NCBI GenBank assembly: GCA_965207885.1
Contig: OZ242311.1
Coordinates: forward strand, 128,001 to 192,000
Length of the DNA: 64,000 bases
From: Candidatus Latescibacterota bacterium
Lineage (GTDB): Bacteria; Latescibacterota; UBA2968
Direction of reading: 5' to 3'
Shown here piece after piece: positions 1,206 to 27,387 of the stretch. The notes beneath the pieces were generated by a model. The model saw only the letters and a list, made by a program, of their open reading frames with translations, was not told the origin of the DNA and did no database searches. The position numbers and the translations under genes were made by a program. How positions within the stretch are numbered: position 1 is the first letter of the stretch; each line of letters starts with the position of its first letter.

Positions 1206-3375
1206 ACGCGGTGTGGCCGTGTCTGTAGCAGCGTTGGCGATTGCCGAAGAGAGCACTGGCACTTACACAGTGGTGCTACTTAGCGCGCCGACAGCACCTG
1301 TGACGCTACAAATATCTGGAATGGAAAATACAGATTTGTCAGTTGATATGTCACAGATCACATTCACAGCAGCAAACTGGAATATACCACAGGAAGTGGT
1401 GGTGCGTGCATACGCAGACGATGATGCGATCGTAGATGATGGTGTGACACTGCATCATGCGATAAGCGGTGGAGACTATGACGAAGTGGTCGTAGCCCCT
1501 GTTGCTGTGGCGATCATAGAGAAGGATGTCCCTGTGTTGCGTATTGAGGATCAACGCGTGAGAGAAGATGCAGGAGAGATGGTGTTTACCGCGACGCTCA
1601 ATATGCAAAGTAGCCAAGAAGTGCATGTGTCTTATGCAACTTCAAATCTTACGGCAGATGCGGGCAAAGATTATGAGGCGACGCAGGGCACTTTGAACTT
1701 TGCAGCCCTGCAAACTCATCAGACGTTCAGTGTGCCGATCATTGACGATGATCTGGACGAGGGGGATGAGACATTTACAGTAATTTTAAGCACACCGATG
1801 CATGTGACCATAAGCGAGGGCAAGGCGCGTGTATTTGGCACGATTGAAGAAGACGATACGCTACCTCGGGCAATGGGATTGTTTCTATCGAGTGTTGGGC
1901 GAATAGTGGCGACACAAACGGTAGATAACATCAGTCGGCGGTTTGAGGATCAGCGGTCAGGGATTCGGCCTTCGTTCACGCTGGGTGGACACCCCCTGAT
2001 ACAATATGATAGCACGGAAAAATGGCACGCTGTGGCGGCACTGATACACAATTTTGCAGCAGCACTGGGCGCAGATATATGGATACCATCTCTCACACAG
2101 GGTCAGGGGTCTGCGAAGGCCATAGAGACGATGCCCCTGCTCGGCGAGAGTGGTCAGTTTGATGATATGGAAACTTTATGGGATTCTCCGCTGCGTTTGC
2201 GGCGGGTCACACCGCGAGAAGTATTGTCGCGCAGTGACTTTGAACTGTCGCTAAATCGCTCGGATAACGGCAGCGGTTGGACCCTGTGGGGACAAGGTGC
2301 AGAGAACGAGATTTCAGGTCAGCTGAATACTGCCCGCAGGATAAAGACCAATAGCGTTAGCGGATATCTCGGCATTGATTATCGGTTCCGCGCAAATACG
2401 CTGGTCGGGCTGGCACTCACACACAGTGTGGGCAACTTCTACTACAATAAGGGTGCTAATCCCCCGCTCGTTCTATCCGATTATAGTCTGACGAGTCTGG
2501 TGCCTTATGCCCACTATCAGATGAATCCAAAACTTGGATTTTGGGGGCTGTTGGGCCTGGGGCGAGGCAACGTTGATGTAAAACACGATGAAGAAACCTT
2601 CAACACGCCGCTGACCTTGCTGATGAGCGCAGCCGGTACCCGTCATGATCTGGCTACCTATCGGCATATTGATCTGGCGATCAAAACCGACGCCTTCTTT
2701 GTGACTGTGGCATCTGGGGCACATGCGAGTTTGCCAGAGATGCGGGAGAATGTAGAACGCTTGCGCGTGCTGTTAGAAGGGCGCAAGAGGCATGAGGTTG
2801 GTTCATCGTCTCAGCTTATCCAGAGTGTGGAGTTTGGAGGTCGTTGGGATCAAGGGCGCGTGGTATCCGGCGCAGGCGTGGACATTGGTGGCAGCGTGAA
2901 GTATACACACACACGCGGCTTGAACCTGGAAGCACGCGGGCGATATTTGTTGGTGCATGAGCAGGCCCGCTATAAAGAATGGGGTGCGAGTCTGTCACTG
3001 CGGACCGATCCAGGCTGGGGCAAGCGCGGCCTGCTGTTGTCAGTAGCTCCTGTGTGGGGGGTGTCATCGCAAAGTGCCGGGGCCATGTGGAATAACACAT
3101 CGAATTTGGGTGGTGGAACTGCATACAGGTCATCACAGGCACCGGGGATCAGACCGGACCGCACAGAAGTAAATTTGGGATATCGTTTTGTGAGACGCAC
3201 CAGAGGCGTGCTCATTGAGCCTTATAGTGGTTTGTCGCTTGATCGTCAGGGCTGGCGAAGGTATCACATGGGCTGGCGAATAGAATTGGATGAGCGAGTA
3301 AATATGAATTTTGAAGGCGATCACAGCGCACAGGGACAAACTGCAATCCGACTTCGCGTCCACTTGATTTGGTAA
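1..3375 (+). CDS. Calx-beta repeat surface protein with C-terminal autotransporter-like beta-barrel (5' partial)
   Basis: Frame is open from base 1 (ATQADY...). Repeated Calx-beta-like units (VSFDQSHYTATEG...DDNVDDDGETITL), then a barrel-like C-terminus (WTLWGQG, YLGIDY, LGFWGLLGLGRG) ending in an aromatic W. Confidence 0.85.
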   Translation, partial: ATQADYTGVPEQIVFESGETVKTFALLATDDNVDDDGETITLRFGTLPDGVNNGGSTSVALVDNDDPVVTVSFDQSHYTATEGEDAVTITVSLSADPKRRVEIPLLVTPENGATQADYTGVPEQIVFESGETVKTFALLATDDNVDDDGETITLRFGTLPDGVNNGGSTSVALVDNDDPVVTVSFDQSHYTATEGEDAVTITVSLSADPKRRVEIPLLVTPENGATQADYTGVPEQIVFESGETVKTFALLATDDNVDDDGETITLRFGTLPDGVNNGGSTSVALVDNDDPVVTVSFDQSHYTATEGEDAVTITVSLSTDPKRRVEIPLLVTPENGATQADYTGVPEQIVFESGETVKTFALLATDDNVDDDGETITLRFGTLPDGVNNGGSASVALVDNDERGVAVSVAALAIAEESTGTYTVVLLSAPTAPVTLQISGMENTDLSVDMSQITFTAANWNIPQEVVVRAYADDDAIVDDGVTLHHAISGGDYDEVVVAPVAVAIIEKDVPVLRIEDQRVREDAGEMVFTATLNMQSSQEVHVSYATSNLTADAGKDYEATQGTLNFAALQTHQTFSVPIIDDDLDEGDETFTVILSTPMHVTISEGKARVFGTIEEDDTLPRAMGLFLSSVGRIVATQTVDNISRRFEDQRSGIRPSFTLGGHPLIQYDSTEKWHAVAALIHNFAAALGADIWIPSLTQGQGSAKAIETMPLLGESGQFDDMETLWDSPLRLRRVTPREVLSRSDFELSLNRSDNGSGWTLWGQGAENEISGQLNTARRIKTNSVSGYLGIDYRFRANTLVGLALTHSVGNFYYNKGANPPLVLSDYSLTSLVPYAHYQMNPKLGFWGLLGLGRGNVDVKHDEETFNTPLTLLMSAAGTRHDLATYRHIDLAIKTDAFFVTVASGAHASLPEMRENVERLRVLLEGRKRHEVGSSSQLIQSVEFGGRWDQGRVVSGAGVDIGGSVKYTHTRGLNLEARGRYLLVHEQARYKEWGASLSLRTDPGWGKRGLLLSVAPVWGVSSQSAGAMWNNTSNLGGGTAYRSSQAPGIRPDRTEVNLGYRFVRRTRGVLIEPYSGLSLDRQGWRRYHMGWRIELDERVNMNFEGDHSAQGQTAIRLRVHLIW

Positions 3376-3415: not shown

Positions 3416-4390
3416 CTACGCGCGGGACGCGCCCAGGGTTTCGAGAACTTGCTTGGGAATTTTGCAAACAAAAGTATAAGCGGGATCATACATATTGCCC
3501 ATATCGTATTCAACGGCCTCGCCCAACAACACATGCACGGTGCGCTCATCCAGCCCAAAATCCGACACAAGCCAGCGGATCATTTCAGTAGTCGCGTGCT
3601 CCACGCACTGATCGAGCGGACGAGCGTTACCCACTGTAAAAATATGCGTATCGTTTTCACCCCGCGGCCACTCAATGGTCTTGCCCTTGTGCAGATGAAC
3701 CGTAAAACGGACATCAAAAGAAATTTCAACACCCGTACCTACAATTTCACCATCGCCCTGAAGCGCGTGCCCATCGCCAATGTGAAAAAGCGCGCCCTCG
3801 ACAAAAACCGGCAAATAAACCGTCGTGCCCTCGTTGAAACGCTTGTAATCCATATTCCCACCGTGCGTGGATGACGTCGCAGTCGAAATCGCCTGCCCCC
3901 GCGGCGGCGCAACCCCAAAACATCCGGGATGCGGATTGAGCGGCAAAATCAGATCCCTCAATGGACGAGTAGCGGGACTGCCATAACCGGGCGTGGTATG
4001 GTCGCGATTGTGAGAAACCTCTACCGGGCGTGCCGTGCGATTTTCAAAATCGATCTCCCATAAAACCCGCGCAATATCATCCTCAAATTTGGGCACATAA
4101 CCCGGATCGAGCACATTGGGCGCAACGCACGCAGACGTATAGCCATGGGACCGATTGGGCATCAAATAATCAAACACAACCGAAATCGAATCCCCCGGCT
4201 CAGCACCCTCAATATAAAAAGGACCCGTCTGGGGATTACCGCCCTCCGTCACCTGCTCGCCCGTCATATCCCTCCCACCCGCACAAACCGTAGTCGTCGA
4301 AAGCGTATCGCCACTTTCAATGGTAAGAACCGGATCGTGGGATCCTATAGTCGTGTGATAATGCGTGGGGCTAAAATTGTGATGTGCCAT
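3416..4390 (-). CDS. Acetamidase/formamidase family protein
   Basis: Motifs NPQTGPFYIEGAEPGD, HGGNMD and GDGHALQGDGEIVGTGVE. Start chosen at the ATG after AGGAG. Confidence 0.9.
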   Translation of the reverse strand: MAHHNFSPTHYHTTIGSHDPVLTIESGDTLSTTTVCAGGRDMTGEQVTEGGNPQTGPFYIEGAEPGDSISVVFDYLMPNRSHGYTSACVAPNVLDPGYVPKFEDDIARVLWEIDFENRTARPVEVSHNRDHTTPGYGSPATRPLRDLILPLNPHPGCFGVAPPRGQAISTATSSTHGGNMDYKRFNEGTTVYLPVFVEGALFHIGDGHALQGDGEIVGTGVEISFDVRFTVHLHKGKTIEWPRGENDTHIFTVGNARPLDQCVEHATTEMIRWLVSDFGLDERTVHVLLGEAVEYDMGNMYDPAYTFVCKIPKQVLETLGASRA

Positions 4391-15152: not shown

Positions 15153-15551
15153 AAGATTGTGATAAGGTGGCGTTCAAGTATCCAGTGATATGATATTTTG
15201 GGTAATGATATATCGCGCACTTGTCAAGAATGTATTGTATCGGGTTATTATAGATATGATCACTTTTTTTTGTGCTTGTAAAACCTGTATTTTTTTCTTC
15301 CCTAAAAACGCAACATGTTCTACATTATCAGTCCATTGCTTCATTTCCCCGCAATATCTTGTATATCCCCTATATCCCCTCTCATAGTTTTTATTTCGAC
15401 CATTGGTCTGCATATCGGCCCTTGGTCATAAAAATTAGACGCTATATCGTCTAATAGTAAAAACTCCTCTGCCTGATTTTTTCTTTTTTTGTCATTATAT
15501 ATTAAATAAAAACAATTATTTGTGAATGTGAGCGCCCGAACAGCCTCACAT

Positions 15552-15567
15552 TGGCATAGATATTGCA
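15552..15567 (+). promoter_or_regulatory. Sigma-54 (-24/-12) promoter
   Basis: TGGCATAGATATTGCA has GG-N10-GC spacing and closely matches TGGCAC-N5-TTGCA; an AT-rich tract and palindromes lie upstream. Confidence 0.7.
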
Positions 15568-15748
15568 GATAAGTACTTATGTAGCAAGAAATCCCTCTTG
15601 AAAAGCGTGAAGGGGCGACCTCAAACTTGCAGCGCATAACTGTCTTTCTAACAGAACTCTTTGTGTCTCGCTGCACCTGATAATGGCATAACATCGGTAA
15701 ATTACGACAATCTGTAAAAAAAATATAATGTTCAAAAGGACAAAATAG

Positions 15749-17173
15749 ATGAGCACACACAGCTTAATAGCCGTGGTTAAACAGGACTGCCCGACCTGCA
15801 CCCTCATTGCACCAGTGCTTAGACAAATTGGAAAGCGGGACGATTCACTCGCGGTTTACACCCAGGACAATCCCGATTTTCCCACGGGAATTGCAAACCT
15901 TATTGACGACACCGGTCTGGAACACTCGTATCGACTCAATATCGAAACCGTACCGACCCTGCTCCGTTTTGAAAACGGGCGAGAAGTGGCGCGGACTGTT
16001 GGATGGCATCGCGGCGATTGGGAAACCGTATCGGGACTCAGCCCCCTCGGCGCAGACCTGCCCGAATCGCGCCCGGGATGCGGATCAAAAAGCATCGAAC
16101 CGGGCATAGCTGAAAAACTCGCCGTCCAATTTGGCGAAACCGTACTCGCCGCCCGGCGCATTGAAGTCGGCGCTCTCGAAGACGAAATAGAAACCTGTTT
16201 TGAGCGCGGCTGGAGCGACGGCCTGCCCGTTGTGCCACCCACCGAAGAACGCATCATGCGCATGCTATCGGGAACGACCCGCTCCCCCGACGAATTGGTG
16301 GGCATCGTCCCCCCCAATTACAACAAATGCACCGTAGAAAAAGTCGCCATCAACGCTGTCCTCGCCGGATGCAAACCCGAATACTTGCCCGTCGTACTCG
16401 CAGCGGTTGAAACCGCACTCACAGAGGCCTTTTGCATGCACGGACTGCTCGCCACCACATTCTTTGCAGGCCCCATGATCGTCGTCAACGGACCGATCAC
16501 ACGCGAAATCGGCATGAACGCGCGGGTCAACGCGCTCGGGCAGGGCAACCGCGCCAACGCGACCATCGGACGCGCCCTTCAACTCGTCATCCGCAACATC
16601 GGCGGCGGCGTCCCCGGAGGCATTGATCGCGCCACGCTCGGCAACCCGGGCAAATACACCTTCTGCTTTGCCGAACGCGAAGACGATTCCCCCTGGGAAT
16701 CCCTCGCCGTCGAAAGGGGATTCTCACCCGACGCATCCACAGTCTCGCTCTTTGCAGCCAGCGGCGTCACCCCCATCATGGATCAGGCATCCCGAGATCC
16801 CGACGCCCTGTGCCGATCCTTCGCCGCCTGCCTCAAAGCCGATGGCCATCCCAAACACGCAAATAGCCCGCTCCCCGTACTGGTCATATCGCCAGAACAC
16901 ACCCGTCGCTATGCAGACGCAGGCTGGTCAAAAATCCGATTCCGCGACACACTAAATCAGTATCTCCAACTCCCCGTCGCAGAACTGCTCTCAGGCGCGG
17001 GCGGCATCCCTGAAGGCATTTCAAAACAACGGACAAAAGACAACGAAACAATACCCAAATTTCGCAACAACACCTTGCACATCGTCCGCGCAGGCGGAGA
17101 CGCGGGCTTATTCTCTGCCCTCATCAGCAGTTGGGGAGGCAGCCAATCCATCACAAAGGAGATCACACCATGA
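15749..17173 (+). CDS. Thioredoxin-like (CPTC) domain fused to UGSC-partner domain
   Basis: N-terminal DCPTC and ETVPTL (Trx fold), RPGCGS linker, then GWSDGLPVVPPT, EKVAINAVLAGCKPEYLPVV and NRANATIGRALQL. Confidence 0.75.
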   Translation: MSTHSLIAVVKQDCPTCTLIAPVLRQIGKRDDSLAVYTQDNPDFPTGIANLIDDTGLEHSYRLNIETVPTLLRFENGREVARTVGWHRGDWETVSGLSPLGADLPESRPGCGSKSIEPGIAEKLAVQFGETVLAARRIEVGALEDEIETCFERGWSDGLPVVPPTEERIMRMLSGTTRSPDELVGIVPPNYNKCTVEKVAINAVLAGCKPEYLPVVLAAVETALTEAFCMHGLLATTFFAGPMIVVNGPITREIGMNARVNALGQGNRANATIGRALQLVIRNIGGGVPGGIDRATLGNPGKYTFCFAEREDDSPWESLAVERGFSPDASTVSLFAASGVTPIMDQASRDPDALCRSFAACLKADGHPKHANSPLPVLVISPEHTRRYADAGWSKIRFRDTLNQYLQLPVAELLSGAGGIPEGISKQRTKDNETIPKFRNNTLHIVRAGGDAGLFSALISSWGGSQSITKEITP

Positions 17174-17679
17174 AATTGCTCGACCCCACATCCGAACAAA
17201 AACCAGCACAGAGAGAACGGGTAAAACGCCCGCAATCACTCGACGGACTGACCATCGGGCTTCTCGACATATCCAAAAGCCGGGGCGACGTATTCCTCGA
17301 CCGCATCGAAACGCATCTCACACAGCGCAACCTCAAAGTCAACCGCTACATCAAACCCACATTCACGCGCCCGGCACCCATCGAACTCCAGCAACAAATC
17401 GTCACCGAGTGCGATGTCGTCGTCGAAGGCCTGGCGGATTGAGGGTCCTGCACAACGTGCAGTGTGCACGACACGACCAACCTGGAAACGCGCGGCATAC
17501 CCACCGTCTTTGTCGCATCCGAGCCGTTCCGAGAAGCAGCCGATGCCCAATCCACCGCCCTGGGATTTAATCCCGCTCGCGTCTTTGTCGCCCATCCCAT
17601 CCAGGATCGCACCGACGAAGAAATGCAGGCACTTGCCGATGGCGCTATCGAACGCATCTTGAAAAGAATTAGTAGATAA
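17170..17679 (+). CDS. UGSC-family selenoprotein (Sec at TGA 17440-17442, codon 91)
   Basis: ORFs 17131..17442 and 17464..17679 share a frame; readthrough gives EGLAD-U-GSCTTCSVHD. A hairpin follows the TGA. The ATG at 17170 overlaps the upstream stop (ATGA) after AAGGAG. Confidence 0.85.
17443..17470 (+). promoter_or_regulatory. Candidate bacterial SECIS element
   Basis: CGTGCA-GTG-TGCACG stem-loop (17456-17470) with an apical G about 20 nt after the UGA; an alternative CTGCAC-AAC-GTGCAG stem is also possible. Confidence 0.55.
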
Positions 17680-17697
17680 AAAAGGATCTACCCCCCA

Positions 17698-18105
17698 ATG
17701 AACGACGAAAAAATCACCAAAACAGACCGAGAATGGCGGGAACAACTCACGCCCGAACAATACTACGTCTGTCGTCAAAAAGGCACGGAACGCGCCTTCA
17801 CCGGCATGTACTGGGACTGCCGTGAAGAAGGCGTATATCGCTGTGCATGTTGCAATGCCGAACTCTTCCGCTCAGAACAGAAATTCGACTCCCACTGCGG
17901 ATGGCCCAGCTTTTTTGACGCCATTGGCCCCGAACGCATCAACCAGCACGAAGACTTGAGCTTTGGCATGCGCCGCATCGAAGTCACCTGCGCCCGCTGC
18001 GACGCCCACCTGGGCCACATCTTCGACGACGGACCCGCCCCCACGGGCCTGCGCTATTGCATCAACTCCGTCGCCATTGATCTGGACCGCGATGAAGAAT
18101 CGTGA
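17698..18105 (+). CDS. msrB: Peptide-methionine (R)-S-oxide reductase MsrB (Zn type)
   Basis: [12 protein letters not shown] and CARC zinc pairs, [16 protein letters not shown] and RYCINS. Confidence 0.95.
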
Positions 18106-18144
18106 AACATAGTTTCCTCATGAGAACCTCACGGACCGAAAAAA

Positions 18145-21100
18145 ATGTTCTCACAGATTGAACAAATCTTCTCGCACATCATCCGCACCCGCCTGACAGC
18201 CATCATCCTCATGCTGGCACTGCCAATCGCGGCAGACGCTCAGGAAGTGACAATTAAGTCAAGCCCTACCAGCATCATGGAAGGCAAAAGCACCACATTT
18301 ATCATATCGGTGACACCAGCCCCAACCAGCAACCTGAGAGTAAACATAGAAGTGACGGGTAATACCATCCCCTCCAGCTACACCCGCCCTACAACAATCA
18401 CCGTCGGCACCTCTGGCCAATACACACTGACAGTGCCAACCGAAGATTTTGACGAGAATCCGGACGACGAAAACTGGGGCAACGTACACGTGAAGATAAA
18501 AGAAGGAACTGGCTACACGATCGGTGAAAATGGAAGCGCGTCCGTGCAGGTAATTGACAGTGACAAGAAGGATGAAGTTACGCTTCCGCCGCTTGAAAAC
18601 CCACCCCCTTCGCTTCCGGTAGTAACGCTTCACACAGACCAAACGCGGGTCGCAATAGGCGACAGGGTGACGCTCACAATGAAGCGCACCGAACCTCACG
18701 ACTACAGACATCGGGTGGATTTCCGGGTGGGCGGACACTTGCCGGATATTACCGACTGGGAACCGATGGTGGAAATCCTTCATCCGCAGTCGGCAAACAG
18801 GCATCCGCCAGGCGAGAGATCGTATTCTTTCCGCGTGCAGGAAGAGACCTGTGGGCACACGCAGGGACGCAAAATTGAAGCCTTTCTCTTTGATGCCTAC
18901 TACTATGGAGACAACATTCCACAGGCATCACGTACTGGGGATTCGGCTTACAAAGTGGGCGATCCATCTTCGGTGACCATAGAGGTTTATAAGCCCACAA
19001 ATTGGCAACCGGCAGGAGCCCCAACCATCAACGGTACGCCCGAGGTGGGTCAAACATTAACAGTCTCCCATGGCCTCAGCGGTGTGACAGGCTATCAATG
19101 GTACCGGGGTTCAAATTCCATCTCCGGTGAGATGGGCAGTACGTACACAGTGCAAACAGCCGATAATGGTCACCGACTGAAAGTTCGGGTAACCTTCAAT
19201 AACGGCACGTGCTATTTGGAAAGCGCATTGACAGCAGTCGTGGGTGGAATGCCAATCGGGACAATTGACACAAATCCTCCAACCATCATCGAAGGTCAGA
19301 CCAAGAGATTCAGAATCACAATGGACCCTGTCCCGAAGGCTCCACTAATTGCAGAAGTGCGCGTCAGCCAGACCGGCGATTTCATCACCGGCTCACCGGG
19401 CGTGGGCATTCACACAGTCAACTTCGGCGCCAACCAGGCCACCGCCACAATAACAGTCAATACTGAAGATGATCAAGTAGAGGAACCGAATGGCGAGATA
19501 AGCGCGGAACTGTTGAAGAGAACAGGCTATGAAGTAGGCGCCCCATCCATCGCAACCGTCATCGTTGAGGACAACGACGAGGGATCTCCGCCACCACCGC
19601 CACCACCACCGCCGCCAACCCCTTCGGTGAGCATCTCTGCCAATCCCACAACCATCACTGAAGGCGGAACCACAACCGTTACGGTCACAGCGAATCCTGC
19701 TCCAACAACCTCAATAAACGTGAACGTGAACGTCAGCCAAAACGGCAATTTCATCAGCGGCTCACCACCATCAAGTGTCACCTTCAATGCCAACAATACC
19801 ACCGCCACATTCACAATCAATACTGTAAACGATAATATAGATGAGCCTAATGGCTCGATAACAGCCCAAGTACAAGGTGGATCAGGCTACACTGTAGGCT
19901 CACCATCATCAGCAACCGTTAATGTCAATGACAACGACAATCCGCCGCCAAATACGCCACAGGTGACCATCTCGGCAGGGACCTCACCCATCACCGAAGG
20001 CACGGATGCAACTTTCACGCTCACAGCGTCTCCTGCACCAACAACCTCAATAAACGTGAGCGTGAACGTCAGCCAGAGCGGCAATTTCATCAGTTCACCG
20101 GGCATCCGCACAGTCAGCATCGGTACCAACGGCACCGCCACACTGATAGTCGCAACAGTCAATGATAATACAGATGAATCAAATGGCTCGATAACAGCTC
20201 AGGTGCAAGGTGGACCAGGCTATTCGGTGGGCTCTCCATCATTGGCAACTGTCACTGTGAATGACAACGACGGGGGATCTCCGCCACCACCGCCAACCCC
20301 ATCGGTGACCATCACAGCGGGGACCTCACCCATCACTGAAGGCACATCTGCAACTTTCACACTCACAGCGTCCCCGGCTCCGACAACCTCAATAAACGTG
20401 AACGTGAATGTCAGCCAAAATGGCAATTTCATCAGTTCACCGGGCATCCGCACAGTCAGCATCGGTACCAACGGCACCGCCACACTGACAGTCGCAACGG
20501 ACAACGATAATACAGATGAGCCTAATGGCTCGATAACAGCCCAAGTGCAGACCGGCGCAGGTTACACAGTAGGCTCACCATCATCGGCTACCGTCAACGT
20601 CAACGATAACGACGCAGCGCCAAGGGGTCCACCGCAGCCAAAAGTGACAATCACAGCGAATCCTACAACCATCACCGAAGGCCAGTCTGCAACTTTCACA
20701 CTCACAGCGTCCCCTGCACCGACGACCTCAATAACCGTGAGCGTGAACGTCAGCCAAAACGGCAATTTCATCAGTTCAACAGGCACGCGATCGGCCACCA
20801 TCAACGCCAACAATACCACCGCCACATTCACAATCAATACCGTAAATGATAATATAGATGAGCCTAATGGCTCGGTAACAGCGCAAGTGCAAGCCGGAAC
20901 GGACTATACTGTAGGCGCTCCATCATCAGCAACCGTTAATGTCAATGACAACGACGTATCTGGAGGAGGAGGTCAACCGCCCATAGGAGTGACCCCACCG
21001 CCGCAACCACCGCAACCACCACCGCAGCCACCTCCTCAACCACCTCCTCCGACCCCATCTGTGACCATCTCAGCCAATCCCACAACCATCACTGAAGGCG

Positions 21101-24100
21101 GAACCACAACCGTTACGGTCACAGCGTCCCCTGCGCCAACGACCTCAATAAACGTGAGCGTAAACGTCACGCAAAACGGCAATTTCATCAGTGGTTCACC
21201 ACCATCAAGTGTCACCATCAATGCCAACAATACCACCGCCACATTCACAATCAATACCGTAAATGATAATATAGATGAGCCTAATGGCTCGATAACAGCG
21301 CAAGTGCAAGGTGGATCAGGCTATTCAGTAGGCTCTCCATCTTCAGTGACCATCACTGTCAATGACAATGACACCTCGCCACCTGGAACTCCAGCGGTGA
21401 CCATCTCGGCAGGCACCTCACCCATCACCGAAGGCACGGATGCAACTTTCACACTCACAGCAACCCCTGCACCTACAACCTCAATAAACGTGAGTGTGAA
21501 CGTCACGCAAAGCGGCAATTTCATCAGCGGCTCAACAGGCGCGCGCACAGTCAGCATAGGTACCTCTGGCACCGCCACACTGACAGTCAATACTGTAAAT
21601 GATAATACAGACGAGTCAAATGGCTCGGTAACAGCACAAGTGCAGGGCGGAACAGGCTATACTGTAGGCTCTCCATCATCGGCTACCGTCAACGTCAACG
21701 ACAACGACGTATCTGGAGGAGGGGGTCAAACGCCGATAGGAGTGACCCCACCACCACAACCGCCACCACAGCCACCACCTCAACCACCACCTCAACCACC
21801 ACAACCACCGCAGCCGCCACCACAGCCGCCACCACAGCCTGGAACCACCCCACAGGTGACCATCTCGGCAGGGACTTCACCTGTCACCGAAGGCACGGAT
21901 GCGACATTTACGCTCACAGCGTCCCCCGCGCCTACAACCTCATTAAACGTGATGGTGGATGTCTCTCAGACCGGCAATTTCATCAGTGGCTCACCAGGCA
22001 GACGTCTGGTCAGCATCGGCACCTCTGGCACCGCAACACTGACAGTAGCAACGGACAACGATAATACAGATGAGCCTAATGGCTCGATAACAGCGCAAGT
22101 GCAGACCGGAGCAGGCTACACAGTAGGCTCCCCTTCCTCAGCAACCGTCACTGTCAATGACAACGACGCAGCGCCAAGGGGTCCACCGCAGCCAAGAGTG
22201 ACAATCACAGCGAATCCTACAACCATCACCGAAGGCACGGATGCCACATTCACACTCACAGCGAATCCCAGACCGACAACCGCGCTGAAAGTACGGATAA
22301 ACGTCACCCAGACGGGTAGTGTCCTCAGAGGCACACCCCCCTCAACCGTCACCTTCCGCGCCAACCAGACCACCGCTACACTCACAGTAGCAACGCACGA
22401 CGACAATGTAGATGAAATCGCCAGCGAAGTAACCGCACAAATACAGACCGGAACGGGCTACACAGTAGGCTCCCCATCCTCGGCAACCGTCACTGTCAAC
22501 GACAACGACATTCCGCAGATGACAATCACGGCGAATCGCGCGAGCGTCACTGAAGGCACGGATGCGACATTCACAATCACAGCAGATCCCAGACCGGCAA
22601 CCGCACTAACCGTGAACGTGAACGTCACCCAAACCGGCGATGTCATCAGCGGCACACCGCCTTCGACAGTCACATTCAACGCCAATCAGACCACCGCCAC
22701 GCTAAGGGTAGCAACACACGACGACAATGTACGCGAATCCGCTGGTACTGTAATGGCGCAAATAACGTCAGGTGTGGGCTACACAGTGGGCACCCCATCC
22801 TCGGCGAGCGTAACCGTCAAAGACAACGACACACCTCCGAACTCACCAGCAACAGGTGCCCCAATAATCATCGGCAAACCCGAATTGGGAGAAACACTAA
22901 AAACAGATGTCTCTAACATCCGGGATGCCAATGGCCTCACCAATGTGTCATACGCCTATCAGTGGATCCGCGTAATCGGCAGTATGGAGACCGAGATTCC
23001 CGGAGCCACGGGTTCGATGTACACAGTGGTAACAGCCGATAGTGGTTACCGGCTAAAAGTTCGGGTGAACTTCAACGACGATTTGGGCTATCCCGAAGAA
23101 CTGGAAAGCGCATTGACAGCGATGGTGGTCATACCGGGCGTGACACCGGTAATAACACTCACACCGGACCCCCCAAGTGTCACCGAAGGCACGGCTGCGA
23201 CATTCACAATCACAGCGACCCCTGCACCCACAATCACACTGACCGTGAACATAAGCATCACCGAAACCGCCAATACCCTCAGCGGCACACCGCCATCAAC
23301 CGTCACCATCAGCGCCGGCCAGACCACACTGACAGTAGCAACAGACGACGATAAAAAGGACGAACACGCCAGTGTAATAACCGCGCAAGTGCAAGCCGGA
23401 ATGGGCTACACAGTAGGCTCTCCATCCTCAGCCAGAGTGCTCGTGATGGATAACGACTTGCCGCCAGCGATAGACGCAACGCTGAGCAACCTGACAATCA
23501 ACCCCGGCATAATGACCCCCACATTCGCTCCGGCCACATTGTCCTACACCGCCCTGGTGCCCCACGATGCCTCATCCGTAACAGTTACAGCAACACCCAA
23601 TAACCCGGACGCAACCGTAGCTATCGACGACCAGAACACCACCTCATTGAACATACCATTTACCGGTGACACAATGGACGTCACAGTAACAGTTATAGCC
23701 GTAGATGGCGTCACCCAATTGACCTACACCATCACAGTCAACCGTGCGCCAGCAGGGTTTCCACAAGTGACCATCACAGCGAATCCCACAACCGTCACCG
23801 AAGGCACGGCTGCGACATTCACAATCACAGCAAACCAACCATCAGTAACCGATCTGACCGTGAACGTAAGCGTCACCGAAACCGCCAAAATGCTCAGCGG
23901 CACACCGCCCTCGACCGTCATCATCAGTGCTGGCTACACCACCGCCACATTGACAGTCGCAACACATGACGACGACGTAGATGAACACGCCAGTGTCGTA
24001 ACCGCACAAATAAAAGTCGGAACAGGCTACACAGTAAGCGACCCATCCTCGGCCAAAGTATTCGTACTGGACGACGAAGTGGTGTTATCGACAGACGCAA

Positions 24101-27100
24101 CCCTGAGCAGCCTGACCATCAACCCCGGTACACTGAATCCAGCATTCGATCCCGACACATACACCTACACAGCCACAGTGCCGTACGCGACCTCAACAGT
24201 AACAGTCACAGCAACACCCAATGACACAGACGCAACCGTAACCCTCAACGGACAGACCGCGACCACATCGAACGTGCCATTTACCGGCGACACGATGGAC
24301 ATCGCAGTAACAGTCACCGCCGAAGACGGCACCACCCAAGTAACCTACACCATCACAGTCAACCGTGGTGCCCCATCGACAGACGCAGCCCTGAGCGACC
24401 TGACAATCAACCCCGGCACACTGAACCCGGCATTCGATCCGGCAACATTGGACTACACCGTCTCAGTGGAAAACGGGGTCTCGACAATAACGATTACAGC
24501 CACAGCCAATAACCCGGGTGCAACCATAACCATCAACGGACAGACCGCGACCACATTGGACGTATCACTTGTCGAAGGCACGAACACCATCACAGTAGTA
24601 GTCACAGCCGAAGACGGCACCACCCAGGTGACCTATACCATTACAATTACCCGCGAAGCACCGATCCCACAGGTGACCATCTCGGCAGGCACCTCACCCA
24701 TCACCGAAGGCACGGCTGCGACATTCACAATCACAGCAACCCCTGCGCCCACAACCGAACTGACCGTAAGCGTGAACATAACAGAGACGAAAGATGTCCT
24801 CAGCGACACACCGCCCTCAATCGTCACCATCGACGCCAACCAGACCACCGCTACCCTCACAGTTGCAACAGACGACGACAATGTAGATGAAGAAGCCAGC
24901 ACAATAACCGCACAACTACAAGCTGGAACAGACTACACCGTGGGCACCCCATCCTCTGCGAGCGTCACCGTGAACGACAACGACGCTGCCCCCAACAATC
25001 CAGCCACAGGCGCCCCAACAATCATCGGCACACCCGAAGTGGGAGAAACACTAACTGCCGATGTCTCTAACATCCGGGATGCCGACGGCCTTGAAAATGT
25101 CACCTATATCTATCAGTGGATCCGCGTAATAGGCGGTGTGGAAACCGAAATCTCAGGTGCCACAGGCACTACATACGAAGTCGCAACAGCCGACATTGGT
25201 TCCCAGATAAAAGTCCGGGTAAACTTCACCGATGATCTGGGCAACGCCGAAGAATTGGAAAGCGACTTGACAGCAATCGTCGTTGCCCCAGTAGTGCCAG
25301 TCTTGACAATCACAGCAAGTACCACAACCATCACCGAAGGCACGGCTGCAACCTTCACAATCACAGCGACCTCTGCACCCACAGCCGAACTGACCATCAA
25401 CGTGAACATCAGTGAAACCGGCAACGTCATCAGCGGCACACTGCCCTCAACCATCACCATCAGCACCAACCAGACCACTCTAACCATCGCAACAGCCGAC
25501 GACAATACAGATGAAGAAGCCAGCGCAATAACCGCAACACTACAAGCCGGAACAGACTACACGTTGGGCACACCCTCATCTGCGAGCATAACCGTAAACG
25601 ACAACGACCTGCCCCCGAACTCACCAGCCACAGGCGCCCCAACAATCACCGGCACACCGCAAGTAGGGCAAACACTAACCGCGGACGTCTCTAACATCCA
25701 GGATGCCAATGGCCTCACCAATGTATCGTACACCTATCAGTGGATCCGTCTGGTAGGCAGTGTGGAAACCGAAATCATCGGCGCCACTGGTGGGACATAC
25801 GAAGTCACAATAACCGACACAGATCGCCAGCTAAAAGTTCGGGTCAACTTCACCGACGACCTGGGCTATGACGAAGAATTGGAAAGCGCATGGACAGCAG
25901 TTATTACACCAGAGGAACCTCGCGTGGTAAAATTAGACGGATGGCTGGCGCGATTTGGGCGAACCGCATCGAATCACGTAATCGAAACCGTGCGCGAACG
26001 CGTGAGGGGGCACGTGGGCACCAACCACGTGGTGATTGGCGGATACAACCTGCATGAGACGAATTATAACGGACTATCCTACAATCCGGCATTGATACCG
26101 AGCGATTCCCCAATGAGATTTAGCATTGAGGCCGCGCAGAGTGCTCACGACAAAGAGATATTGAAGCAAATCATATCGAGTACATCATTTGCCCTGTCTG
26201 GCACAATGGGACCGTACAGCGAACCTCGATGGGCAGTGTGGGGCCGGGGTGCAACAACGCGCTTTAGCGGCACCGACGACGATCAGACAGTAGAAGGCGA
26301 CGTAACATCGGTCATGCTGGGCATCGACTATGGGGATAACAGTTTCCAGGGCGGGCTTGTCCTATCCTACACCATGGGCGATGGCATACTGGGCACCATC
26401 GCCAATACCCGCGACGAATGGTCAGTAGAGACAACGCTGACGGGTATCTATCCCTGGGCGCGCCTCGCATTGACAAACCGATTCTCTGTATGGGGAATGC
26501 TGGGCTATGGCGGAGGCGATCTGCCCCTATCGCTCGAAGGCATCAAGAAATTAGAGACAGACGCAAACATGGTCATGGGAGCAATTGGGACCCGCACCGA
26601 TTTGGTCGGATCGACCTATCATGACGGATTTACACTGACCCTGGCATCAGATGCAGTGCTATCGCGTGCGAATGCGGATGATCTGAGGGATTTGTTGGAG
26701 AACAAGGGCACGGCGAGCCGCGTACGCGTATTATTAGAAGGATCACACGTACTCTGGGTCGCCGGGGGTTCACTGCAACCATTGGCCGAGGTGGGAATGC
26801 GGTATGATGGCGGCGATGCAGACACGGGCATGGGGATAGAAATTGGTGCCGGGATGCGCTATGTACTGACCTCGCTGGGCCTGATGATTGAGGGTCGGGT
26901 GCGCGGCCTCATAGCACACCAGGAAGGCAATTATGAAGAATGGGGCGGCTCGGGCACAATCCGCCTGTCTCCAAATCCATCAGGCGAAGGACTATCGCTT
27001 CGGGTATCGCCAACATGGGGCGACGCATCTGGCAGCGCGCGTGCCCTGTGGTCGAGGCCCGACATGGGCGACATCGCATCTGGTCGCAACTCGGAAGTCT

Positions 27101-27387
27101 ATGCATCTAACCACGTATCCGCCGAAATAGCCTATGGCGTACCGCTACTGGGCGATAAATTAATTGCAACGCCATTTGTCGGGCTACAAGACCGGCACAA
27201 ACGGCTCGGCGTCGGCTTGCACAGGGGTTCGTTATTCGGCCTTGCGGTCGAGGGCATGCAACACAACCAGGACCTTGCCCTGAGGGTTCGCGCGGGCATG
27301 CACACGCAACACATCATCCTCCGCCTTGAAGGCAGCCTCGATAAATATGGTCACCACGCCTACTTCAGGCTACACCACGATATGTGA
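18145..27387 (+). CDS. Giant (3080 aa) repetitive adhesin: signal peptide, Calx-beta/Ig-like repeats, cadherin-like beta-sandwiches, Pro/Gln linkers, autotransporter-like barrel
   Basis: Signal peptide ending ADA-Q; many ITEG...YTVGSPSSATVxVNDND units; APTIxGxPxxGxTL...YQW units; DATLSxLTINPG units; C-terminal WLARFGRT...WGRG...LGIDY barrel. Confidence 0.85.
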   Translation: MFSQIEQIFSHIIRTRLTAIILMLALPIAADAQEVTIKSSPTSIMEGKSTTFIISVTPAPTSNLRVNIEVTGNTIPSSYTRPTTITVGTSGQYTLTVPTEDFDENPDDENWGNVHVKIKEGTGYTIGENGSASVQVIDSDKKDEVTLPPLENPPPSLPVVTLHTDQTRVAIGDRVTLTMKRTEPHDYRHRVDFRVGGHLPDITDWEPMVEILHPQSANRHPPGERSYSFRVQEETCGHTQGRKIEAFLFDAYYYGDNIPQASRTGDSAYKVGDPSSVTIEVYKPTNWQPAGAPTINGTPEVGQTLTVSHGLSGVTGYQWYRGSNSISGEMGSTYTVQTADNGHRLKVRVTFNNGTCYLESALTAVVGGMPIGTIDTNPPTIIEGQTKRFRITMDPVPKAPLIAEVRVSQTGDFITGSPGVGIHTVNFGANQATATITVNTEDDQVEEPNGEISAELLKRTGYEVGAPSIATVIVEDNDEGSPPPPPPPPPPTPSVSISANPTTITEGGTTTVTVTANPAPTTSINVNVNVSQNGNFISGSPPSSVTFNANNTTATFTINTVNDNIDEPNGSITAQVQGGSGYTVGSPSSATVNVNDNDNPPPNTPQVTISAGTSPITEGTDATFTLTASPAPTTSINVSVNVSQSGNFISSPGIRTVSIGTNGTATLIVATVNDNTDESNGSITAQVQGGPGYSVGSPSLATVTVNDNDGGSPPPPPTPSVTITAGTSPITEGTSATFTLTASPAPTTSINVNVNVSQNGNFISSPGIRTVSIGTNGTATLTVATDNDNTDEPNGSITAQVQTGAGYTVGSPSSATVNVNDNDAAPRGPPQPKVTITANPTTITEGQSATFTLTASPAPTTSITVSVNVSQNGNFISSTGTRSATINANNTTATFTINTVNDNIDEPNGSVTAQVQAGTDYTVGAPSSATVNVNDNDVSGGGGQPPIGVTPPPQPPQPPPQPPPQPPPPTPSVTISANPTTITEGGTTTVTVTASPAPTTSINVSVNVTQNGNFISGSPPSSVTINANNTTATFTINTVNDNIDEPNGSITAQVQGGSGYSVGSPSSVTITVNDNDTSPPGTPAVTISAGTSPITEGTDATFTLTATPAPTTSINVSVNVTQSGNFISGSTGARTVSIGTSGTATLTVNTVNDNTDESNGSVTAQVQGGTGYTVGSPSSATVNVNDNDVSGGGGQTPIGVTPPPQPPPQPPPQPPPQPPQPPQPPPQPPPQPGTTPQVTISAGTSPVTEGTDATFTLTASPAPTTSLNVMVDVSQTGNFISGSPGRRLVSIGTSGTATLTVATDNDNTDEPNGSITAQVQTGAGYTVGSPSSATVTVNDNDAAPRGPPQPRVTITANPTTITEGTDATFTLTANPRPTTALKVRINVTQTGSVLRGTPPSTVTFRANQTTATLTVATHDDNVDEIASEVTAQIQTGTGYTVGSPSSATVTVNDNDIPQMTITANRASVTEGTDATFTITADPRPATALTVNVNVTQTGDVISGTPPSTVTFNANQTTATLRVATHDDNVRESAGTVMAQITSGVGYTVGTPSSASVTVKDNDTPPNSPATGAPIIIGKPELGETLKTDVSNIRDANGLTNVSYAYQWIRVIGSMETEIPGATGSMYTVVTADSGYRLKVRVNFNDDLGYPEELESALTAMVVIPGVTPVITLTPDPPSVTEGTAATFTITATPAPTITLTVNISITETANTLSGTPPSTVTISAGQTTLTVATDDDKKDEHASVITAQVQAGMGYTVGSPSSARVLVMDNDLPPAIDATLSNLTINPGIMTPTFAPATLSYTALVPHDASSVTVTATPNNPDATVAIDDQNTTSLNIPFTGDTMDVTVTVIAVDGVTQLTYTITVNRAPAGFPQVTITANPTTVTEGTAATFTITANQPSVTDLTVNVSVTETAKMLSGTPPSTVIISAGYTTATLTVATHDDDVDEHASVVTAQIKVGTGYTVSDPSSAKVFVLDDEVVLSTDATLSSLTINPGTLNPAFDPDTYTYTATVPYATSTVTVTATPNDTDATVTLNGQTATTSNVPFTGDTMDIAVTVTAEDGTTQVTYTITVNRGAPSTDAALSDLTINPGTLNPAFDPATLDYTVSVENGVSTITITATANNPGATITINGQTATTLDVSLVEGTNTITVVVTAEDGTTQVTYTITITREAPIPQVTISAGTSPITEGTAATFTITATPAPTTELTVSVNITETKDVLSDTPPSIVTIDANQTTATLTVATDDDNVDEEASTITAQLQAGTDYTVGTPSSASVTVNDNDAAPNNPATGAPTIIGTPEVGETLTADVSNIRDADGLENVTYIYQWIRVIGGVETEISGATGTTYEVATADIGSQIKVRVNFTDDLGNAEELESDLTAIVVAPVVPVLTITASTTTITEGTAATFTITATSAPTAELTINVNISETGNVISGTLPSTITISTNQTTLTIATADDNTDEEASAITATLQAGTDYTLGTPSSASITVNDNDLPPNSPATGAPTITGTPQVGQTLTADVSNIQDANGLTNVSYTYQWIRLVGSVETEIIGATGGTYEVTITDTDRQLKVRVNFTDDLGYDEELESAWTAVITPEEPRVVKLDGWLARFGRTASNHVIETVRERVRGHVGTNHVVIGGYNLHETNYNGLSYNPALIPSDSPMRFSIEAAQSAHDKEILKQIISSTSFALSGTMGPYSEPRWAVWGRGATTRFSGTDDDQTVEGDVTSVMLGIDYGDNSFQGGLVLSYTMGDGILGTIANTRDEWSVETTLTGIYPWARLALTNRFSVWGMLGYGGGDLPLSLEGIKKLETDANMVMGAIGTRTDLVGSTYHDGFTLTLASDAVLSRANADDLRDLLENKGTASRVRVLLEGSHVLWVAGGSLQPLAEVGMRYDGGDADTGMGIEIGAGMRYVLTSLGLMIEGRVRGLIAHQEGNYEEWGGSGTIRLSPNPSGEGLSLRVSPTWGDASGSARALWSRPDMGDIASGRNSEVYASNHVSAEIAYGVPLLGDKLIATPFVGLQDRHKRLGVGLHRGSLFGLAVEGMQHNQDLALRVRAGMHTQHIILRLEGSLDKYGHHAYFRLHHDM

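Follow-up and report, generated by a model that had tools for sequence, protein, structure and literature searches.

The stretch of DNA analyzed here (the window) comprises 64,000 nucleotides of contig OZ242311.1 from a Candidatus Latescibacterota bacterium (assembly GCA_965207885.1; positions 128,001 to 192,000 of the forward strand). Its subject is a gene at 17170 to 17679 that contains one in-frame TGA codon and very probably encodes a selenoprotein of the UGSC family, directly preceded by a gene for a thioredoxin-containing protein that is likely its partner. The features of the locus, in window coordinates and with the evidence for each in parentheses, are as follows.

15749 to 17173, + strand: partner gene, 474 aa, predicted thioredoxin domain followed by the domain called Unknown_1, stop codon TGA at 17171-17173 (open reading frame, AlphaFold2 model, 79 of 80 loci)

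17156 to 17161, + strand: Shine-Dalgarno-like AAGGAG, 8 nt ahead of the ATG of the UGSC gene (read from the sequence)

17170 to 17679, + strand: UGSC family selenoprotein gene, very probable, 169 aa, with U91-G-S-C94-T-T-C97 (reading frame, hidden Markov models, homologs)

17440 to 17442, + strand: in-frame TGA, very probably read as selenocysteine, residue 91 (TGA in 80 of 80 loci, Cys homologs, substitution pattern)

17444 to 17478, + strand: possible lower stem, GGUC (17444-17447) with GACC (17475-17478), around the hairpin (41-nt fold)

17456 to 17470, + strand: putative hairpin of the bacterial selenocysteine insertion sequence (bSECIS) type, 6-bp stem CGUGCA/UGCACG, loop G-U-G at 17462-17464 (comparative alignment, folding, bSECIS constraints)

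17698 to 18105, + strand: msrB, methionine-R-sulfoxide reductase, Cys form (TIGR00357, 184.4 bits; PF01641)

The reading frame that opens at ATG 17170 runs to a TAA at 17677-17679, and its sole internal stop is the TGA at 17440-17442. A first-pass annotation of this DNA had joined two open reading frame (ORF) pieces through that codon into a 169-aa protein containing D-U-G-S-C-T-T-C, and a rereading of the frame gave the same result: with the TGA translated as selenocysteine (Sec, U), the product contains ...VVEGLAD-U-GSCTTCSVHD..., in which the Sec is residue 91 and the two cysteines are C94 and C97. ORF calling with translation table 11 splits the locus into 17131/17170-17442 and a GTG-started piece at 17464-17679. 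The start codon of the UGSC gene overlaps the TGA stop of the partner gene (ATGA, 17170-17173), an arrangement that suggests translational coupling of the two genes. The joined ORF scored above the cutoffs of both models of what the first-pass annotation had taken to be a recognized (seleno)protein family, namely, NCBIfam NF041046, "UGSC family (seleno)protein" (157.3 bits, cutoff of 125, residues 25 to 167), and Pfam PF24696 (152.6 bits, cutoff of 25). The Pfam match covers both halves of the joined protein (residues 3 to 167, corresponding to model positions 2 to 170 of 172). The AD-U-GSC stretch lies at residues 89 to 94 of 169, and C91, G92, S93, and C94 were invariant among 45 aligned sequences in which U was read as C. 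We regard it as very likely that 17170 to 17679 is one gene, that it belongs to the UGSC family, and that its TGA is decoded as Sec.

A protein database search recovered 1,513 relatives of the joined protein. Among the 120 best matches, 112 were stubs of 92 to 150 aa covering 51 to 53% of the query, in keeping with the earlier claim that gene callers split this gene, and the five stubs that were aligned all stop at ...LAD, directly before the TGA. The eight full-length proteins among these 120 carry Cys (six proteins) or Trp (P0002 and P0003) at the Sec position. The Trp is most simply explained as a TGA translated as Trp by the gene caller of the source and would represent a second route of misannotation in the UGSC family.

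A scan with one genome per species recovered 574 relatives, of which the best 80 loci were kept. These span Latescibacterota, Acidimicrobiia and other Actinomycetota, Chloroflexota, several proteobacterial classes, Myxococcota, and Acidobacteria and include two cultured Halopseudomonas species. TGA stands at the Sec codon in all 80 loci, and the frame remains open for 78 to 96 codons past it; together with the Cys in six full-length homologs, this is the pattern that the first-pass annotation anticipated when it proposed comparing the TGA with homologs carrying CGSC at that position. At five Latescibacterota loci (L001 to L005) with UGSC proteins 86 to 97% identical to that of the window, differences from the window after the TGA at codon positions 1/2/3 numbered 1/0/5, 1/1/10, 0/0/10, 1/2/9, and 9/4/23, respectively. 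All of those in L003 are synonymous, and the same third-position bias is seen before the TGA. Such a pattern of substitution past the TGA indicates that the 3′ part is translated in the window's lineage, which the close identity to L001 to L005 places in Latescibacterota. TGA is also an ordinary stop codon in these genomes, ending the partner gene 267 nt upstream and 35 of the 80 UGSC genes, which rules out a reassigned genetic code.

A CGTGCA-GTG-TGCACG hairpin with an apical G about 20 nt downstream of the TGA had been noted in the first pass. We located it at 17456-17470, starting 13 nt past the UGA, with 19 nt between the UGA and the loop and with the first loop G at 20 nt from the A of the TGA. 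The stem has 6 bp in the window and 8 bp in most other lineages (GUCGUGCA/UGCACGAC). Folded alone (19 nt), the window hairpin has an energy of −7.4 kcal/mol (z = −1.89), and 11 of 200 shuffled sequences folded equally well; the 19-nt hairpins of relatives range from −9.3 to −10.9 kcal/mol. A 41-nt fold that includes the lower stem reaches −12.1 kcal/mol (z = −0.25), and a 71-nt fold has a z of −0.61. Since the hairpin of the window taken by itself does not exceed chance, support for it must come from comparison across genomes. The lower stem is specific to the window's lineage and is not family-wide; RNAalifold retained the upper stem only.

For this comparison, the 60 nt from the TGA onward were aligned without gaps in 81 sequences, and RNAalifold returned a single stem pairing columns 17 to 21 with columns 27 to 31. 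Across the named 8-bp stem (columns 15 to 22 with 26 to 33), 94.0% of 616 cells were paired, and sliding the 3′ partner by 1 to 3 columns reduced pairing to 1 to 58%. Pair 18-30 occurs as GC (53 sequences), GU (15), or AU (8), pair 21-27 as CG (76) or UA (1), and pair 15-33 as GC (69) or AU (1). The covariation score was reached by none of 500 shuffles, a control that ignores relatedness and overstates significance because the sequences are related. G23 and U24, which open the loop, do not vary in any of the 81 sequences. Synonymous variation is near-absent at codons +4 to +10 only (ACG in 72 of 81; TCG or TCA only; TGC in 80 of 81; AGT in 75 of 75; GTG in 64 of 65; GAC in 80 of 81); Ser at +2 uses six codons, and the sites flanking codons +4 to +10 vary freely. 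As read from these aligned sequences, the synonymous constraint covers exactly the hairpin, and this codon table is the strongest result for it. The hairpin recurs in a distant Sec form carried by an Acidovorax plasmid, in which pair 21-27 is reversed to G-C.

The bSECIS model specifies a loop of 3 to 9 nt, a stem of 4 to 16 bp, G[G/U] at the start of the loop, and a distance from UGA to loop of 16 to 37 nt (PMC13188914). The window hairpin falls within this geometry, with a 3-nt loop, a 6-bp stem, G followed by U, and 19-nt spacing. The first-pass description of a SECIS-like element directly 3′ of the UGA is therefore upheld, as the hairpin is conserved, shows compensatory changes, and fits the published constraints.

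An AlphaFold2 model of the UGSC protein, built on a 45-row alignment, is a single compact domain of five parallel beta-alpha units that continues across the TGA (predicted local distance difference test [pLDDT], 92.3; predicted template modeling score, 0.86). According to this model, the UGSC protein is a small alpha/beta domain of the flavodoxin/Rossmann type. U91 is placed between strand 83-89 and helix 92-107, with C94 and C97 on the next turns of that helix; this predicted position, after strand 3 and at the N terminus of a helix, would be one characteristic of redox-active selenols engaged in selenenylsulfide formation. Foldseek searches against the PDB returned generic flavodoxin-like, TIR, and related alpha/beta domains only (template modeling [TM] scores of 0.39 to 0.52, 9 to 18% identity), and thioredoxin was absent from the listed matches. 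The "likely Trx-like fold" suggested for the family in the 2008 Global Ocean Sampling (GOS) paper (PMC2398784) is thus not supported, and we rejected assignment to the thioredoxin-fold selenoproteins on the five parallel beta-alpha units and the lack of a thioredoxin match. Glycine/proline reductase selenoprotein B (Pfam GRDB, PF07355) was also rejected, being unmatched even at E values up to 10 in a search that reported only PF24696. A sequence search of the PDB with the UGSC protein gave nothing useful.

The protein encoded directly upstream has an N-terminal thioredoxin-like region at about residues 1 to 100, with CPTC at C14/C17 (15788-15799), then a linker cysteine, Cys111, in PGCGS (16079-16081), and then a C-terminal domain of about 340 to 370 aa that corresponds to Unknown_1 of the GOS paper (PMC2398784). 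Its residues 200 to 258 match the Unknown_1 alignment in Fig. S1A of that paper, including a conserved cysteine (C208). In the AlphaFold2 model (pLDDT, 90.2), Foldseek matches to thioredoxins are confined to the N terminus (TM[target] of 0.5 to 0.6 over 81 to 106 columns), where C14-P-T-C17 is invariant; we assign this domain as a thioredoxin on its modeled fold together with its CxxC motif. Among the Pfam and NCBIfam models, thioredoxin fell below the cutoffs for the partner and no other family was found, and PDB sequences gave weak thioredoxin matches only. The partner has at least 8,000 database relatives, which, where named, are called "thioredoxin family protein" or "thioredoxin." Unknown_1, searched within the full partner model, had no convincing PDB relative in Foldseek. 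Class I fumarate hydratase was rejected as a relative (TM of ~0.2, root mean square deviation of 10 to 16 Å), and matches to partner residues 100 to 474 in the ESM Atlas all scored <0.9 and are leads only.

In 79 of the 80 loci, the gene immediately preceding the UGSC gene is the partner. At two Acidimicrobiia-type loci (L014, 2854-2856; L067, 2892-2894), the cysteine of the PG-C-GS motif, equivalent to Cys111 of the window, is itself replaced by a TGA; in the remaining 74 sequences that have the motif, the codon is TGC or TGT. At 12 nt past the TGA of the partner lies an 8-bp hairpin with the loop CGGGC, which shows one compensatory change (C-G to U-A) between the two loci and has an energy that is not unusual compared to that of Cys forms. 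The partner itself seems to be a selenoprotein in some lineages.

A profile search with Unknown_1 against 1.84 billion representatives recovered 7,134 cluster representatives at an E value of ≤0.001, of which 150 were listed, and 34 proteins picked from these 150 by length and match offset (a nonrandom choice) were scanned in Pfam. Four of the 34 carried a complete N-terminal UGSC domain, 13 started with the post-TGA part of UGSC (two of them under the Pfam cutoff), and three finished with the pre-TGA part, at ...GD. Of the remainder, one had the catalytic domain of ferredoxin:thioredoxin reductase (FTR) in place of thioredoxin (P0302), one had a weak AhpC/TSA match, and 12 had no Pfam match. 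UGSC parts at either end of Unknown_1 proteins indicate that fusion of UGSC with Unknown_1 occurs in both orders, often in selenoproteins that gene callers cut at the TGA. P0245 is a Cys-form UGSC/Unknown_1 fusion. The other four of the five longer UGSC matches (P0242, P0243, P0244, and P0246) contain Arg-rich stretches that are out of frame; they look like gene calls that were frameshifted or merged and were not counted as fusions. A UGSC/Unknown_1 fusion had been reported in the GOS study (PMC2398784, text and Fig. S1). In P0302 (470 aa), the N-terminal domain is an FTR catalytic chain (PF02943, 76.3 bits), a hint that electrons may enter by an iron-sulfur route in some lineages.

Unknown_1 also adjoins the UGSC gene in seven of seven distant plasmid loci. 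The locus of Arthrobacter sp. ERGS1:01 is a trxB-trxA-Unknown_1-UGSC operon, that of Variovorax sp. SRS16 has trxB three genes upstream, and the Halorientalis and Halalkalicoccus loci have Unknown_1 paralogs on either side of the UGSC gene. The Cys-form UGSC/Unknown_1 pairs of L081, L082, L084, L086, and L087 lie within catabolic-looking clusters: a phosphosulfolactate synthase is encoded near the pair in Arthrobacter and Natrinema zhouii, and coenzyme A (CoA) transferase, CoA ester lyase, and TRAP/TTT transporters are encoded near it in Halorientalis, Halalkalicoccus, and Variovorax. These neighbors are possible clues to the class of substrate. The IncP plasmid p2-T1 of Acidovorax sp. T1 carries an in-frame UGSC(Sec)-Unknown_1 fusion (L083, 2905-4500) with its TGA at 3193 and the family hairpin, which is annotated in the plasmid table as a 97-aa hypothetical protein only. 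Past about residue 530 of this fusion, the reading frame changes character and the Unknown_1 match ends, and the gene may be disrupted.

The complex of the two proteins was predicted from the window's partner (46-row alignment) and a stand-in for the UGSC protein, P0004 (8-row alignment), whose numbering minus 8 gives that of the window. The interaction prediction score from aligned errors (ipSAE) was 0.81, and the best of three controls scored 0.00; 116 of 157 solved complexes attain this mark, as do 2 of 215 mismatched pairs, a calibration that is rough with user-supplied alignments. Runs shared at least 83% of contacts, and the partner had a pLDDT of at least 87. The predicted interface of the small subunit comprises stand-in residues 8 to 18, 72 to 76, 99 to 105, 108, and 127 to 139. 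Residues 8 to 18 are the invariant N-terminal LLDPT peptide (window residues 1 to 10), residues 99 to 105 are U91 to C97 of the window, with the Sec position, C94, and C97, and residue 108 is H100; the interface takes in nearly all of the invariant residues of the UGSC family. On the partner side, it comprises residues 133 to 166, 189 to 205, 229 to 237, and 279 to 294, its most conserved stretches. We consider it likely that the UGSC protein and the upstream protein form a physical and functional pair.

These results suggest a mechanism in which UGA-91 would be decoded as Sec and the hairpin at 17456-17470 would act as a bSECIS, presumably recruiting SelB with Sec-tRNA(Sec) to the paused ribosome. 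The UGSC protein would then be the small subunit, and the upstream thioredoxin-Unknown_1 protein the large subunit, of a two-part enzyme, with Sec91, the cysteines, His100, and the invariant LLDPT peptide docking on the most conserved face of Unknown_1. In the composite active site so formed with Unknown_1, Sec91 may alternate between the selenol form and a selenenylsulfide bond to C94 or C97. Rereduction of the Se-S or S-S bond at each turnover would most likely fall to the fused thioredoxin domain and the linker Cys111; in other organisms, this step could fall to an FTR-like domain or to separate trxA and trxB products. The chemistry would most likely be a thioredoxin-driven reduction of a small molecule, like that of the selenoprotein reductases of the Stickland reaction. 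Our confidence in the explanation as a whole, a Sec-decoded UGSC gene whose product is the small subunit of a two-part enzyme with the upstream partner, is high. That the enzyme is a thioredoxin-driven reductase we somewhat favor. The chances are even for the broadest form of the proposal, in which UGSC is the selenol-bearing small subunit of a very large family of thioredoxin- or FTR-driven reductases with a composite active site, occurring in split, fused (in both orders), and thioredoxin-fused forms from bacteria to haloarchaea, with a second Sec, in the PG-U-GS linker of the large subunit, in some Acidimicrobiia.

Several observations weigh against this interpretation, some on the side of decoding and others on the side of function. 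The hairpin of the window is short (6 bp) and not significant relative to shuffles of longer stretches, its minimal form (−7.4 kcal/mol) lies just outside the bSECIS energy limit of −7.5 kcal/mol (−12.1 kcal/mol with the lower stem; PMC13188914), and Rfam had no match in 15500-18300. Covariation is modest, amounting to three pairs and 10 cells with double changes. Among five distant Cys-form plasmid homologs used as a control, four, all haloarchaeal, can fold a 6- to 7-bp hairpin in the same register, so that the S-[CW]-x-x-H-D motif, written in GC-rich codons, accounts for part of the stem; the fifth (Arthrobacter, C-S-S-C-S-V) lacks a hairpin of this kind and has TCC and GTA where Sec forms have AGT and GTG. 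The window contains no tRNA gene and hence no selC, and selA, selB, and selD were unmatched among the 39 large and 3 further window ORFs that were scanned. On the side of function, one locus (L013, 3143-4495) has a Sec-form UGSC gene without the partner within 4 kb. The complex was predicted with a metagenomic Cys form (P0004, 59% identical) replacing the window's own Sec protein, and ipSAE is the model's own confidence rather than a measurement. The thioredoxin CxxC and Cys111 are not among the named interface residues. The parts of the UGSC selenoprotein literature that were consulted report no substrate, activity, or selenium incorporation for any member.

If the TGA were a true stop, the locus would be a pseudogene or two small genes (90 aa and a GTG-started 71 aa) and the hairpin would be incidental. 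Table 11 ORF calling yields exactly these pieces, public gene calls annotate stubs of 92 to 94 aa, and both the unmatched Sec machinery and the nonsignificant hairpin of the window fit such an account. It is nevertheless extremely improbable: all 80 loci, from several phyla, retain the TGA and continue past it in the same open, conserved frame, third-position-biased substitutions persist past it, a single hidden Markov model covers both halves, one compact AlphaFold2 domain (pLDDT, 92.3) crosses it, and Cys-form homologs are uninterrupted. Read-through without Sec, whether by a reassigned code (Trp or Gly), suppression, or decoding as Cys, would account for the W in P0002 and P0003 and for a window in which no sel genes were seen. 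We judge this highly improbable too, since TGA ends the partner gene in the same operon as well as 35 of 80 UGSC genes, so that the code is standard, and since homologs have Cys, the usual counterpart of Sec, at this position. Downstream of the codon is a conserved hairpin with bSECIS geometry and an invariant G-U, and the GOS study lists 255 Sec forms against 21 Cys forms (PMC2398784, Table 2). An unlikely alternative, although less so than these two, accepts the selenoprotein and makes it a free-standing thioredoxin-like thiol-disulfide oxidoreductase, with the upstream gene as a neighbor or substrate. The literature tentatively groups UGSC with the thioredoxin-like kind, L013 carries the gene with no partner nearby, and a complex score is not a measurement. 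Set against these points, the model is not a thioredoxin fold and has flavodoxin-like and TIR-type matches only, the partner is adjacent in 79 of 80 loci and in seven of seven plasmid loci, fusions occur in both orders, and nearly all invariant UGSC residues lie within the predicted interface. Sec decoding and pairing with the Unknown_1 protein remain the preferred explanation.

Beyond the gene pair, msrB begins 18 nt downstream of the UGSC gene on the same strand; it is found downstream in 5 of 80 loci only, all Latescibacterota. Clustering of 412 flanking ORFs from the 80 loci revealed no conserved third gene. The best cluster, present in 23 of 80 loci, was an HhH-GPD gene on the opposite strand, the others being lineage-specific housekeeping genes, and it was rejected as part of the system. 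At L013, a PNP_UDP_1 phosphorylase gene stands upstream in the partner's place. Right after msrB in the window, an ORF of 3,080 aa (18145-27387, + strand) contains many near-identical repeats of ~100 aa with proline-rich linkers between them and a distinct C-terminal region. On the + strand, GC skew stays negative and AT skew positive from window position 4000 to 48000, in agreement with the location of most long genes on that strand. A crude, nonrigorous scan of the window for more genes with in-frame TGA codons turned up only the ends of genes and noise from other frames, and no second selenoprotein was apparent; promoter and terminator scans gave counts at the level of shuffled sequence. 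A literature search on Latescibacteria with selenocysteine found nothing on Sec use in the phylum.

UGSC was first noted in Hyphomonas neptunium and an Olavius symbiont in 2007, with function unknown (PMC1976440). With the Sec and Cys counts given above (255 and 21), it ranked near the top in abundance among selenoprotein families of the GOS metagenomes (PMC2398784), and a 2026 review includes it, as NF041046, in a group of families described as functionally uncharacterized for the most part (PMC13188914). The family has been cataloged since 2007 to 2008, and the gene of the window is therefore a new member of a known family. In the parts of the UGSC selenoprotein literature that were consulted, with no dedicated search made on these points, we did not encounter the near-universal pairing of split genes with a thioredoxin-Unknown_1 protein, the nonthioredoxin fold, the predicted interface, the FTR-type variant, or the second Sec site in the partner. 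The context offers a unit that lends itself to testing, an enzyme encoded by two genes or by a fused one, whose Sec position falls in the predicted subunit interface, and thioredoxin-type electron input appears in three different architectures. Cultured hosts exist for both forms, namely, Halopseudomonas oceani DSM 100277 (L059) and H. pachastrellae JCM 12285 (L073) for the Sec form and Arthrobacter and haloarchaea for Cys forms. In public gene calls, members of the family and their fusions are routinely truncated at the TGA. If UGSC proteins are indeed the small subunits of thioredoxin- or FTR-driven reductases, they would constitute a new class of Sec-dependent reductases outside the Stickland enzymes, and the pairing would offer a handle for finding the function of an orphan selenoprotein that ranks among the most abundant in aquatic metagenomes.

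Compared to the bSECIS consensus (bSECISearch model, PMC13188914), the hairpin shares the 3-nt loop, the 6- to 8-bp stem, the G-U loop start, and the 19-nt spacing and differs in that its minimal form in the window lies just short of the energy limit (−7.4 versus −7.5 kcal/mol), the fold with the lower stem reaching −12.1 kcal/mol. The upstream protein of the window shares the Unknown_1 domain with the UGSC/Unknown_1 fusions of the GOS study (PMC2398784); in the window, the genes are separate and apparently translationally coupled, with thioredoxin on Unknown_1, whereas the fused forms are without thioredoxin. With the UGSC family as a whole (NF041046, PF24696), the gene has in common the U-G-S-C motif, a length of ~170 aa, Sec/Cys pairing, and a SECIS right after the UGA. 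Nothing essential differs, and the window gene is the Latescibacterota ortholog, with a 6-bp stem versus the usual 8 and with msrB next to it. The glycine, sarcosine, and betaine reductases (GrdA/GrdB) and the D-proline reductase (PrdB) are thioredoxin-dependent selenoprotein reductases. PrdB has the motif UxxC (PMC2398784, Table 2). No sequence relationship to these enzymes was detected (GRDB, PF07355, unmatched at E values up to 10), there is no evidence of a pyruvoyl group, and UGSC hosts are largely aerobic or marine and not Stickland fermenters. The likeness would be one of working principle only: a Sec in a UxxC motif on a small or separate subunit, a larger partner that handles the substrate, and electrons supplied by a thioredoxin system whose genes share the operon.

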